Positions 54,019-56,983 of a DNA stretch of 64,000 nucleotides are shown piece after piece. The position numbers and the translations under genes were made by a program. This DNA is from a virus. Taxonomy: Duplodnaviria; Heunggongvirae; Uroviricota; Caudoviricetes. The stretch lies in the IMG/VR virus record IMGVR_UViG_2974794945_000001, positions 165,273 to 229,272 of that record, one strand, 5' to 3'. Within the stretch, counting starts at the first letter, position 1. Every line of letters starts with the position of its first letter. The notes below the pieces were generated by a model. It worked only from the letters and a program-made list of their open reading frames with translations. It was not told where the DNA came from and did no database searches.

Positions 54019-56169
54019 TTACCGCATCCAACCAGGAATACGGTTAACAGTTTTAGGGATTTCAAATTGCTTACTATCAATGACAATATCGAATTGTTCA
54101 AAAGCTTTCTGGAGAGTACCGTGCATTAGACGATGTTCATCAAGCTCTTCAGGTTGTTCTTTGATGAACGATTCAAATGCTTCCTTTTGTTCAAAGGGAG
54201 ATTTAACACCTGTGATTTCTTCAACCATTGATTGACTCCAAGCAAGGATGTCGGCTGAACGGGTAGAGATGTTAGGTTCCTCACCTGTATCCAAAGTAGC
54301 AGTAAAAACAATTGTCTGTGAATCCTGACCAATCCGATAGATACGAGCAATAGCTTGTTCTAGAATATAGCTACGGAAAGGGGAATTCAAAATCAACATG
54401 GTGTCGGCCATGGTAAGGCGTACAGCTGTTGCTAAAGAAGCGTATGTAGCCAACAATGGGTTTAGCTTAGGGTCTTTATCAAAACGAGTAACAATAGAAG
54501 CTAGCTCGTTAGATGTTTTACCATAAACTGCAATTGGAGACATGCCCAATTTACGTACATGCACTTCAGAAGCTTCTAGCGCTTCAACAAATGAAGTGAA
54601 CATGATGGTTTTCTTTTGGGTAGATTCGACAATACCAACCCAGTCTACATACGGAACCATTGCAACGTGACATTCAATACGTTTACCACCCAAGATACGC
54701 CCAAGGGTTTCTCCTTGGATCTTAAGCATAACGTATTTAATAGCTGACTTAACATCACGGAACTCATGAATCATTGATTGCGGTAGCGATGGACCAAACA
54801 CCAGTTTCTCATAACGGTTAGTTGCTTTGATTTCTTCCCCTGTAAATCTAGGGTCAGGGTTAGCAATAACAATCTTGAGCACTCTACGGTATTCGTTGTA
54901 CGCAGCAATCTGTTCTTTAGTCTTTAACTTAGATTCATGAATAGCAAGACACTGTGCCCAATACTTATCATCTTGGGGTTTGCGATCTTTATAGAACTTC
55001 ACCCGTTCTCGAATGAACTGTTCCATTACTACTTTAATAGCAGCCAATGTAAAGTCTTTACCATTAGGAATCTGAATCTTGTAAGGTTTCATAATGGGTG
55101 GCTTTAGACCAGTTGATTCTTCCGTCTTAGCAATAAAGAAAGACATGAATCCCATTCGATGTCGGATGATATCTAAACCTTTACCGCCCTCTTTACCAAA
55201 GATCAGTTTAAAGCGTGCCTCAACCTCAGGAGTAAACAATGGATCAGATACGGCCATCAGTGTGATGAGTTCTGTACCAAGTGCCTTCACGGGCGTACCA
55301 GAGGCTAGGATGTTATCTTTAGAACCTAACGCTTTAACACATGCAATGTACAATTGTGTTTGTAGCGACTTAGGATCGTTCATGTTGTGGCATTCATCTA
55401 GGGCTGTAAAGATTTTCAGTCCTTTGAATACACCTGAATGAATAATGTCTAAGAAATTAGCCAGCCATTGGTAGTGTACAACAATTACTTTTTCATTGTT
55501 GTATGGACGACCCATATCCGATGCCCAAACAGATGGTCCTTCCTTATACATCTCTTCTAGAGAAACAGTATCGGAATAATCATTCGATTCCATAGAAGGA
55601 ACCCAAACTGTGTTGACTGCTCTTTTCTCAACAAAGAAGATCATTCGATCGGCATGAAGCATCTCACCAATCATTGTGGTCATGGCTGTTTTGCCAGTAC
55701 CAGGTTCAGCGTGTAACAGATCACCCGTTAAGTTCCACTGATCAAGTCGATGGTTATAAGACTTGAAATAATCCATCTGTTCTTGTTTAGGGGTAAACTT
55801 AAATTTCTCTAACTGCTTGAAGTCTAATCGGCCCGGCTTATTAGGATCTGGTTTAGCATAAGCTTGACCAATCCATGTGGACTCTATCATTGCTGCCCGA
55901 ATAGCAGCGGCTTGCTTGACAGAAATGTACCGAGAACGATAGTTCATTACGCTATCAAGAATGTACATGAAGTCAGGAGCAAAGAACTTATAAAAACGTA
56001 GTTCCGTACTTGATGCATGGTTAAAAATGTTAGATGCAATACGTGAGGTTTTCCAGTGCTTGGAAATGTCTCGGACGAGGTGGCTCCCGTTTACGCCAGA
56101 AAGGATGATTTCGTTGCCTTGTTCTTTGGCAACTACGACGCCCATCACACGTCTGAAATAGCTCTGCAT
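54019..56169 (-). CDS. SF2 (SNF2-like) DNA helicase, phiKZ gp203-like
   Basis: HAEPGTGKT, LDECHN, ASGTP and QAIARIYRIGQ motifs. Confidence 0.88.
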   Translation of the reverse strand: MQSYFRRVMGVVVAKEQGNEIILSGVNGSHLVRDISKHWKTSRIASNIFNHASSTELRFYKFFAPDFMYILDSVMNYRSRYISVKQAAAIRAAMIESTWIGQAYAKPDPNKPGRLDFKQLEKFKFTPKQEQMDYFKSYNHRLDQWNLTGDLLHAEPGTGKTAMTTMIGEMLHADRMIFFVEKRAVNTVWVPSMESNDYSDTVSLEEMYKEGPSVWASDMGRPYNNEKVIVVHYQWLANFLDIIHSGVFKGLKIFTALDECHNMNDPKSLQTQLYIACVKALGSKDNILASGTPVKALGTELITLMAVSDPLFTPEVEARFKLIFGKEGGKGLDIIRHRMGFMSFFIAKTEESTGLKPPIMKPYKIQIPNGKDFTLAAIKVVMEQFIRERVKFYKDRKPQDDKYWAQCLAIHESKLKTKEQIAAYNEYRRVLKIVIANPDPRFTGEEIKATNRYEKLVFGPSLPQSMIHEFRDVKSAIKYVMLKIQGETLGRILGGKRIECHVAMVPYVDWVGIVESTQKKTIMFTSFVEALEASEVHVRKLGMSPIAVYGKTSNELASIVTRFDKDPKLNPLLATYASLATAVRLTMADTMLILNSPFRSYILEQAIARIYRIGQDSQTIVFTATLDTGEEPNISTRSADILAWSQSMVEEITGVKSPFEQKEAFESFIKEQPEELDEHRLMHGTLQKAFEQFDIVIDSKQFEIPKTVNRIPGWMR

Positions 56170-56249
56170 GGTTAAACCCTTGTTCTTTATTAGAAGTCAT
56201 AAGATTAGCCTCAGTGTAGTTTAAGTAATAAAGTACGCAAGAATGCCAA

Positions 56250-56419
56250 TACTATAGACAAGGGTACGCGCGAATGCGCAGACCGCGAGGAGGTGATCCA
56301 GTCGTTAATCCCAAACCAGGTGCTTTACCAAGCCATAGCTGAGAAGCTACGAAAGCCTGACTACGAACCTTGTCTATTAGAGTCTGACCTCTGTTGGTTA
56401 CCTTCGGGTAACCATTATG
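56250..56419 (+). ncRNA. Candidate structured small RNA with 16S 3'-end complement
   Basis: 10-bp closing stem 56254-63/56368-77, internal hairpins, and an orphan UUCG terminator with no upstream + gene. Confidence 0.55.
56396..56419 (+). terminator. Intrinsic terminator (orphan)
   Basis: GGTTACC-TTCG-GGTAACC-ATTATG. Confidence 0.7.
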
Positions 56420-56443
56420 TCCTAACACAAAAAATCTCACGTC

Positions 56444-56451
56444 TATATTAC
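56444..56451 (+). promoter_or_regulatory. Early promoter core TATATTAC (TCTCACGTC variant)
   Basis: Motif match. Confidence 0.75.
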
Positions 56452-56479
56452 ATATTCACACTATCAAAAGGAATTTACC

Positions 56480-56983
56480 ATGTCCCATAATCCAATGTCT
56501 GAATTGCACCAACAACAGATCACCGGTGGTACTAACCCACTCACTAACATCTCTGTGTCCAGTGTAGCGGGTAAAGTGAGCTTTGGTACCGAAGCTGATC
56601 CTACCGAAGTATATCAAGATTGGCCTGCGCGTTTTCATGTGCTGGACTCAGTTGACTTCTTGACTTACGAACAAGTGTTAAAAGCGTTTACTGACGAAGA
56701 TACTTGGTTTAAACTTGATGCAGTTCATGACGCTATTAATGAAGCAGGTCAACGCTTGGTTAATATAGGCTATGATGACGATATTGGTACTGCTGTTAAA
56801 CGCATGACTGTGTCGCTGCCTGGTATTATGCCACCCGATGTATTGAAAGCACTGTACGAAAAAGTGCGTGATGCTGGCCATCTACTTTATCCGGTACGCC
56901 GTATGGGTATTGACAGTACTACGTTTACCGTCTTCACTATTGTCCCAGGATATGCAGCTCTTGCACAGCACTCCAACAGTTGA
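56480..56983 (+). CDS. Hypothetical early protein
   Basis: AAGGA SD. Confidence 0.7.
   Translation: MSHNPMSELHQQQITGGTNPLTNISVSSVAGKVSFGTEADPTEVYQDWPARFHVLDSVDFLTYEQVLKAFTDEDTWFKLDAVHDAINEAGQRLVNIGYDDDIGTAVKRMTVSLPGIMPPDVLKALYEKVRDAGHLLYPVRRMGIDSTTFTVFTIVPGYAALAQHSNS

Follow-up and report, generated by a model that had tools for sequence, protein, structure and literature searches.

The stretch of DNA analysed here (the window, 64,000 nucleotides (nt) in full) is part of a 305,260-bp virus record, and comparative analysis indicates that its positions ~56254-56419, read on the plus strand, are a self-contained gene for a structured non-coding RNA (ncRNA) of ~170 nt that is conserved in phiKZ-like Pseudomonas jumbo phages. 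The RNA is built of covarying helices around a single-stranded segment, the seed, which is complementary to the 3' end of Pseudomonas 16S ribosomal RNA (rRNA), including the anti-Shine-Dalgarno (anti-SD) tail. A first-pass annotation of the window had proposed an orphan structured small RNA (sRNA) on this strand, and the proposal holds in a broader form: the element belongs to a covarying family that reaches phiKZ itself and matches no Rfam entry. We think that the RNA may act in trans, binding the 16S 3' end through its seed as a trap or decoy for the small ribosomal subunit (30S), a reading for which our confidence and our doubt are about evenly balanced.

The predicted fold is a three-way junction closed by P1, in which P2 is a hairpin and P3 bears the GNRA-capped P4, and a UNCG-capped terminal hairpin follows P1. 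The stems and hairpins, and the segment AGGAGGTGATCCAGTCGT at 56288-56305, all lie where the first-pass annotation had placed them. In window coordinates the parts are:

56254-56263, plus strand: P1 5' strand, ATAGACAAGG, pairing with 56368-56377; double changes in 10 of 10 pairs across 23 sequences
56268-56279, plus strand: P2 hairpin, GCGC-GAAU-GCGC, with compensatory changes from GCGC/GCGC to GUGC/GCAC and GCAC/GUGC
56287-56303, plus strand: seed, R-AGGRGGUGAUCCAGYC, in the single-stranded junction J2/3; complement of 16S U1541-G1525
56304-56316, plus strand: unpaired linker from seed to P3, 11-14 nt throughout the family and variable in sequence
56317-56321, plus strand: P3 5' strand, CAGGU, pairing with GCCUG at 56355-56359
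56322-56333, plus strand: clade-specific hairpin within P3, GCUU-UACC-AAGC, predicted in the fold of the window RNA (GGUG..CACC in relatives L122 and L123)
56336-56349, plus strand: P4 hairpin, TAGCT-GAGA-AGCTA, with a GAGA tetraloop of the GNRA type; 7 of 7 stem pairs covary, and the loops are GAGA, GUGA, GCGA or GGGA
56355-56359, plus strand: P3 3' strand, GCCUG, pairing with 56317-56321
56360-56367, plus strand: unpaired junction, (A)CUACG(G), complement of 16S C1510-G1514 in the 5' strand of helix 45
56368-56377, plus strand: P1 3' strand, CCTTGTCTAT, whose CCUUGU is also complementary to 16S A1500-G1505
56379-56392, plus strand: P5, a weak variable hairpin (AGAG..CUCU) that includes ACCUCU; deleted in L122 and L124, replaced by unrelated hairpins in other groups
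56396-56419, plus strand: P6, the terminal UNCG hairpin GGTTACC-TTCG-GGTAACC (56396-56413) with its tail AUUAUG; 8 of 8 stem pairs covary, and the loops are UUCG or UGCG

The helices are supported by covariation. Across 23 sequences aligned on a covariance model (R1, built from the seven close sequences of alignment A3), 95.8% of cells pair, compared with 67% in column shuffles and 36-43% when the partners are slid; changes occur on both sides in 33 of 37 pairs, and none of 500 shuffles reaches any of the observed measures. The 23-sequence alignment was fitted to the model, which favours the structure; a MAFFT alignment of the close set already shows 10 compensatory pairs. P3 is absent from the model and is mis-registered between subgroups in both the MAFFT and the model-fitted alignments, so we tabulated it sequence by sequence. 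It starts 11-14 nt after the seed in all members despite different sequences (CAGGU/GCCUG, AUGAGCGU/AUGCUCAU, GAUAC/GUAUC, GGGGU/ACCCC and GAAUCC/GGAUUC). The stems covary in relatives, and the 16S-complementary segment is the most conserved part of the RNA.

The fold also fixes the strand. The P4 loop is always GNRA, the terminal loop is UNCG and many helix positions are G-U, all of which is true of the plus strand alone; on the minus strand many of the G-U pairs would become A-C. An anti-SD mimic read from the minus strand, which the first-pass annotation had offered as an alternative, is thus disfavoured. Its idea of a switch between ACCUCU and GGAGGU did not survive comparison either, ACCUCU being the 3' strand of the variable P5 and missing in 201phi2-1, PhiPA3 and uncultured subgroups. 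Its UUCG terminator fared half and half: the hairpin is there, yet there is no U-tract and a standard terminator scan was negative, and we only presume that the terminal hairpin terminates transcription. A separate peculiarity was seen at P3. In L130, L134 (Viktualia) and L144 (201phi2-1), its 3' strand (GUAUCUA/GUACCUA) can pair with either of two direct repeats that follow the seed, UAGAUA/UAGGUG adjoining it and GAUAC/GGUAC 10 nt on, and both registers change in step between phages; these alternative registers may form a switch coupled to occupancy of the seed.

The seed stands out by its constancy. AGG-R-GGUGAUCCAG-Y-C is the only invariant run in a 22-sequence alignment with a mean column identity of 51%, and the base before it is a purine in 22 of 22. 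The partner was taken as the Pseudomonas 16S 3' end (L295), which was confirmed by genome scan and is exact in P. avellanae, P. viridiflava, P. putida and others. Together, the purine and the 16 seed positions give 17 of 17 positions pairable with 16S U1541-G1525 in all 22 members. The three variable seed sites are A/G opposite U or C/U opposite G, so that each variant still pairs, and the eight sites at which any change would break pairing never vary. Just outside the block, the position opposite A1542 pairs in 11 of 22 members and the one opposite C1524 in 7 of 22, a drop which places the start of the conserved block at most one base from the physical 3' end of the rRNA. The chance that three variable sites would all fall within the nine tolerant positions is ~0.12, or a few per cent when the direction of change is included; such pair-preserving variation is suggestive of 16S pairing but is not proof of it.

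In the window the perfect 14-nt complement to the 16S tail reported by the first-pass annotation, 18 nt there with two G-U wobbles, lies within a run of 19 contiguous pairs (56287-56305, 3 G-U) that reaches into helix 45, with a predicted energy of -36.9 kcal/mol compared with -9.2 for a plain AGGAGG. Across members the duplex is 17-20 bp long, and its energy lies between -33 and -38.6 kcal/mol in the 22 core members and at -31 in two marine look-alikes described below. Nowhere in the window does an exact complement of the 16S tail exceed this 14-mer, the next in length being two 10-mers without the Shine-Dalgarno (SD) core. Its improbability had been put at ~5e-4 under uniform composition; we keep the figure, which on its own makes the match only modestly unlikely, and the argument that the seed is more than a chance match is carried by its invariance in relatives and not by the single 14-mer match. 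When three Pseudomonas genomes were searched for the seed complement, nothing but the 16S copies matched with zero mismatches. P. avellanae has one non-rRNA site with a single mismatch, GGCTGGATCACCCCCTG (G003:C260:15824-15840, minus strand), which the commoner AGGGGGUGAUCCAGCC form of the seed complements exactly and which is probably due to chance. The phage genome holds no site complementary to the seed apart from the RNA locus itself, and the family shows no conserved internal partner for it.

Could the segment simply be a strong ribosome-binding site (RBS)? No ATG, GTG or TTG lies 4-12 nt past the SD core in the window or in 24 relatives, which bears out the first-pass remark that a start codon at SD spacing is missing, and there is no conserved reading frame in the relatives. 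Two open reading frames (ORFs) cross the region, one of 65 amino acids (aa) on the plus strand (GTG at 56293) and one of 62 aa on the minus strand; neither matches any PHROG family, and close relatives differ by gaps of 1 and 2 nt that disrupt both frames. Since the frames are broken and no start codon follows the SD core, a coding role is excluded.

The family extends across the phiKZ-like phages of Pseudomonas. All model searches used R1, which omits P3, so distant members may have been missed. At every phiKZ-like locus tested (phiKZ, PhiPA3, 201phi2-1, HPP-Temi, Viktualia, D6 and RVTF4), mostly fetched via helicase homology, R1 finds a single copy. E-values are below 1e-48 for five IMG/VR relatives, 2e-17 for L127, and 1e-8 to 6e-11 for L128-L130, Viktualia, PhiPA3, HPP-Temi and phiKZ, whose copy, one per genome, lies at NC_004629.1 212850-213041 on the plus strand. 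A further weak R1 match in phiKZ at 29.3 kb was set aside, as it covers the terminator hairpin only. Scanning viral contigs for the exact seed and then applying R1 added 201phi2-1, PA7 and ~15 uncultured contigs of 70-250 kb, and R1 copies are counted in about 20 further jumbo-phage contigs of IMG/VR; a scan with GAGGAGGTGATCCAG returned at least 118 loci and was too unspecific. By blastn the RNA is present in 47 phiKZ-type records, 13 others and phage DT01, all with Pseudomonas hosts, whereas the versions in L179 and L189 gave no blastn matches to named phages. The annotation under the blastn matches is either absent or a stray short ORF, and no GenBank record that we checked annotates the RNA. 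No Rfam 15 family corresponds to it: with cmscan on 55900-56800 (E <= 10) the sole match was SpR20, which lies outside the element and is a chance match (17.6 bits against a gathering score of 45), and ARAGORN found no tRNA or tmRNA within the window.

An analogous element occurs in two contigs related to T4-like marine phages (pelagiphage HTVC008M, cyanophage S-PM2), at L189:10941-11079 on the plus strand and L177:5419-5554 on the minus strand. There, UAGGGGGUGAUCCAGUC is surrounded by a long covarying stem, after which comes a hairpin of the UUCG type that does have a true U-tract. These loci were selected by the seed itself and have weak model scores (E ~0.003); they may represent an independent phage RNA that displays a complement of the 16S tail.

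The RNA lies inside a 310-bp gap between a minus-strand helicase gene and the next plus-strand operon, whose ATG is at 56480. The surrounding features are:

54019-56169, minus strand: virion SNF2 helicase, the divergent neighbour, homologue of PHIKZ203 with 52% identity over 99% of its length
56220-56235, plus strand: AT-rich block, an inferred candidate middle-type promoter (non-virion RNA polymerase), ~24 nt upstream of the 5' edge of the RNA
56248-56257, plus strand: AAUAnUAUAG, likely transcript start region, conserved in the phiKZ, PhiPA3, 201phi2-1 and window-phage groups
56442-56451, plus strand: early-promoter-like TCTATATTAC of the next operon, downstream of the RNA hairpin
56480-56983, plus strand: first gene of the next operon, 167 aa, function not assigned, 24-40% identical among three close phages

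The window genome is that of a giant Pseudomonas phage, and the PHIKZ203 homologue identifies it as a phiKZ-like jumbo phage. The gap is better conserved than what lies beyond it: it is 81% identical to that of D6 and 72% to that of RVTF4 (both Pseudomonas phages), whereas the 167-aa downstream protein is only 40% identical to its D6 counterpart, and phiKZ, Viktualia, HPP-Temi and PhiPA3 have no detectable homologue of it at the same position. The neighbours also shift, the RNA being inverted relative to the helicase in PhiPA3 and separated from it by extra genes in L123 and the Viktualia group.

Several signals suggest a transcription unit of its own. All phiKZ-group relatives share the AT-rich, AAATAC-like block and its distance from the RNA, and the motif described for phiKZ middle promoters is weak, AT-rich and centred at -24 (PMC7598289). 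In other subgroups UAUG sits right at the base of P1, matching the phiKZ late-promoter motif T-3ATG+1 (PMC7598289). UUAUG(Y)C follows the terminal hairpin in nearly all members, and its UAUG, at 56416-56419 in the window, matches the late-promoter motif as well. We infer that the RNA is transcribed from a middle- or late-type phage promoter and ends at the hairpin. The early-promoter-like motif of the next operon is kept at this place in D6, RVTF4, L122-125 and phiKZ, and also in the L150 group. TATATTAC occurs seven times in the window, always on the plus strand (15498, 16721, 21317, 41843, 42973, 47991 and 56444), compared with 1.9 expected, and these sites are probably early promoters of the phage virion RNA polymerase. 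With an early-promoter motif downstream of the hairpin and with neighbours that shift, the RNA looks like a middle or late unit of its own, apart from the next operon; the position of that promoter motif and the lineage-varying downstream gene tend to argue against the class of ncRNAs that arise from 5' untranslated regions (5' UTRs) by premature termination.

Some further features of the locus deserve mention. In L123 (3202-4000) the RNA stands ~730 bp further from the helicase than in L122 and L124-L126. In PhiPA3 (L135 3989-7159), PA1C, BRkr, PS119XW and SL2 the helicase homologue matches as two pieces over ~3.1 kb, not 2.1 kb, which suggests that an intron, an intein or an inserted domain intervenes. 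Upstream of the helicase start, at window positions 56188-56211 read on the minus strand, a conserved GGCTAATCTTATGACTTC is present in the window phage, D6, RVTF4, phiKZ, L127, L150 and PhiPA3; it includes TATG, the phiKZ late-promoter motif, which fits the helicase as a late virion protein.

How might such an RNA work? In the model that we favour, the J2/3 strand between P2 and P3 would present the invariant seed, which would pair in trans with nt 1525-1541 of host 16S rRNA, a stretch that takes in the anti-SD tail, the GAUCA linker and, in helix 45, the lower part of the 3' strand, in a duplex about four times as stable as a normal SD contact. Without a start codon, the RNA would sit on the mRNA-docking site of 30S subunits, whether free or immature, with no productive initiation, and the 11-14 nt linker would place the P3/P4 block where mRNA would enter, making the whole a 30S trap or decoy. 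Like trans-acting sRNAs, the element has a conserved unpaired seed and a complementary host target, and it would be a seed-type sRNA whose apparent target is rRNA itself. In this role it would bind 30S and affect translation.

A number of points weigh against this model. With an invariant seed, covariation with a varying partner cannot prove the pairing, and the accessibility of the seed in thermodynamic folding is moderate (mean unpaired probability 0.46, compared with 0.38 elsewhere). In the mature 30S, nt 1525-1529 are paired in helix 45, and full pairing would need partial unwinding. At seed position 4, 17 of 22 members have G, not A, opposite U1537, a wobble where a perfect match is possible. 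The phage's own genes use SD sequences (AAGGA before 56480), and a global block would hit the phage too. Finally, R1 and seed searches did not find the family in 11 other jumbo phages (Erwinia RAY and Joad, Salmonella SA002, Vibrio XC32 and pTD1, Ralstonia RP12, Xanthomonas LucasX, Serratia Moabite, Aeromonas PS2, Klebsiella Eowyn and Pseudomonas EL), so its function is not universal to nucleus-forming phages. Near-matches to the seed in SA002 and EL were rejected, as they sit in coding-looking sequence.

The likeness to 16S rRNA may not end at the seed. When the post-seed part of 17 representatives was scored against every 30-nt window of the reverse-complemented whole Pseudomonas 16S, the ten best of ~1500 windows all covered CTACGGCTACCTTGT, which corresponds to 16S nt ~1500-1514 (z = 4.7). 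This segment adjoins the seed target, in the right order for antiparallel pairing, and the match maps to the junction (A)CUACGG and the P1 3' strand; the junction reads AACUACG almost without variation across the phiKZ group, while distant groups have ACGG. Taken singly, four members (L127, HPP-Temi, D6 and phiKZ) reach p <= 0.012. As a control, the 5' part of the RNA peaked at only z = 2.7, at unrelated places and on either strand, and a proposed mimicry of the helix 45 sense strand by the 5' half was dropped upon failing this control. The members are related and amount to about one observation, for which the rank probability is ~37/1500 = 0.025. Taken with the seed target, the second match makes the RNA antisense to both flanks of helix 45, which leaves two options: the gene may descend from an antisense copy of the rRNA 3' end, or the RNA may pair with both flanks.

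The first option feeds the strongest rival to a trap or decoy, namely that the invariant block is kept as a site bound by a phage or host protein or for a tertiary contact inside the RNA, with its 16S likeness being a relic of captured antisense rDNA or a coincidence. An invariant sequence yields no covariation for any partner, a two-part likeness is what a captured fragment would leave, and the preference for G over A at seed position 4 would fit a constraint other than pairing; in some members (L179, L202) the downstream junction has a GGCUG able to pair with CAGCC at the 3' end of the seed. A relic would decay, however, and here the block alone is invariant while the rest is at ~50% identity; it ends within 1 nt of the 16S 3' terminus, varies solely in pair-preserving ways and has no intragenomic RNA partner. 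We regard this rival as unlikely, while taking it seriously.

Under the second option the RNA would be a guide or remodeller rather than a passive decoy, pairing, on pre-16S rRNA or free 30S, with the two segments that flank helix 45 (nt ~1500-1514 and 1525-1541). A 17-nt toehold on the 16S tail would invade helix 45, and ACUACGG and CCUUGU would capture nt ~1500-1514; the outcome could be to block late 30S maturation, to mark the 3' end for a double-strand nuclease or to hold it for RNA-ligase repair. The strength and antiparallel order of the second match favour this scheme, as does the reach of the seed to G1525, inside helix 45. But the second segment is partly locked within the P1 stem, the match fades to ACGG..CCUGU in distant subgroups, kinship reduces the evidence to the near-single observation noted above, an antisense rDNA relic could also account for the likeness, and no nuclease or ligase is linked to the locus. 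The two-flank pairing, and with it the remodelling role, thus strikes us as doubtful. If it were true, the 3' minor domain of host 30S or pre-30S would be silenced, unfolded, held for repair or marked for cleavage, and a phage RNA would reprogramme ribosomes directly and not via mRNAs or proteins.

Known binders of 30S include SD-like elements that lack a start codon, and STAB-SD elements are an example: stabilisers of Bacillus mRNAs, ~9 nt long and placed in the 5' UTR of the protected mRNA, that act in cis in hosts with a 5' exonuclease. The phage element resembles them in being an SD-like sequence without a start codon, of a kind thought to bind 30S; it differs in its length of at least 17 nt and in lying inside a folded RNA with its own terminal hairpin in a Pseudomonas phage. 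Between it and the next start codon stand four helices, a hairpin and a promoter motif. A related explanation is that the RNA is a cis leader, its read-through transcripts carrying a super-SD that loads or parks 30S for the downstream operon as a standby site or STAB-SD stabiliser. The RNA is always just upstream of some gene, and many phiKZ 5' UTRs have terminators with both short and read-through forms (PMC10914365). Yet conservation of the downstream gene does not extend over the family, PhiPA3 has the element facing the helicase, the early promoter of the operon sits downstream of the hairpin, and ~190 nt with several stable helices separate the seed from the start codon that comes next; a leader function seems improbable to us. 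It is scarcely credible that the seed is the RBS of a small unannotated ORF or that the minus strand encodes an anti-SD mimic, for although AGGAGG is a perfect SD and the 65-aa and 62-aa ORFs cross the region, the start codons, intact frames and PHROG matches are missing, and the compensatory stem changes, GNRA and UNCG loops and G-U pairs speak for a plus-strand RNA.

The trap or decoy model has points of contact with several known systems. We know of no ribosome-associated ncRNA (rancRNA) that uses a long antisense match to the anti-SD tail. The concept of an ncRNA on the small subunit that tunes translation globally would nonetheless be shared with rancRNAs (reviewed in PMC8938821) and small-subunit-binding tRNA fragments, which are mostly processed fragments of cellular mRNAs and tRNAs, whereas here we have a dedicated phage gene. 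The SD/anti-SD interaction, including the extended SDs of S. aureus (PMC13009471), has the same partner in the 16S tail, the same polarity and the same core, GGAGG/GGGGG plus UGAUC. The phage RNA, by contrast, has no start codon or ORF and forms 17-20 contiguous pairs into helix 45 rather than 4-9 (~12 at most), and its site lies in the junction of a stand-alone folded RNA and is invariant across phages that are otherwise ~50% identical. sRNAs that mimic the anti-SD, masking the ribosome sites of mRNAs with C/U-rich loops, likewise interfere with SD/anti-SD recognition but have the opposite polarity: they pair with mRNAs, while the phage RNA carries the SD side and can pair only with rRNA.

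Other ncRNAs have been reported from the same phages. Grad-seq of phiKZ found ncRNAs at other loci, 3'UTR-PHIKZ298 and 5'UTR-p40, and the p40 species partly co-sediments with 30S (PMC8545117). ONT-cappable-seq gave 17 5'UTR-derived candidates in phiKZ (PMC10914365) and 11 candidates in 201phi2-1 (PMC11512511; sRNA005/sRNAgp182). These are likewise short transcripts between a phage promoter and a hairpin terminator, but the loci named there (298/297, p40, 221, 302, gp182/gp277) differ from ours. The texts of PMC8545117, PMC10914365 and PMC11512511, as distinct from their supplementary candidate tables, which may list the transcript, mention neither the 203/204 gap nor complementarity to 16S rRNA. 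Literature searches turned up no phage RNA with complementarity to the end of 16S rRNA, and a late-2025 review of nucleus-forming phages makes no mention of ncRNAs. To our knowledge, in jumbo-phage takeover of translation only proteins, such as phiKZ gp014, have so far been shown on host ribosomes.

The RNA family bears on the question of how jumbo phages take over translation, and the conservation of its seed points to a single partner, the anti-SD end of 16S rRNA. One copy belongs to the model phage phiKZ, and because Grad-seq, dRNA-seq and long-read data from infected PAO1 exist, the question is immediately testable there. If the pairing is real, we know of no earlier natural phage RNA directed at rRNA by antisense pairing; such an RNA would offer a direct handle on ribosome capture during infection and a natural template for oligonucleotides against the same rRNA site.

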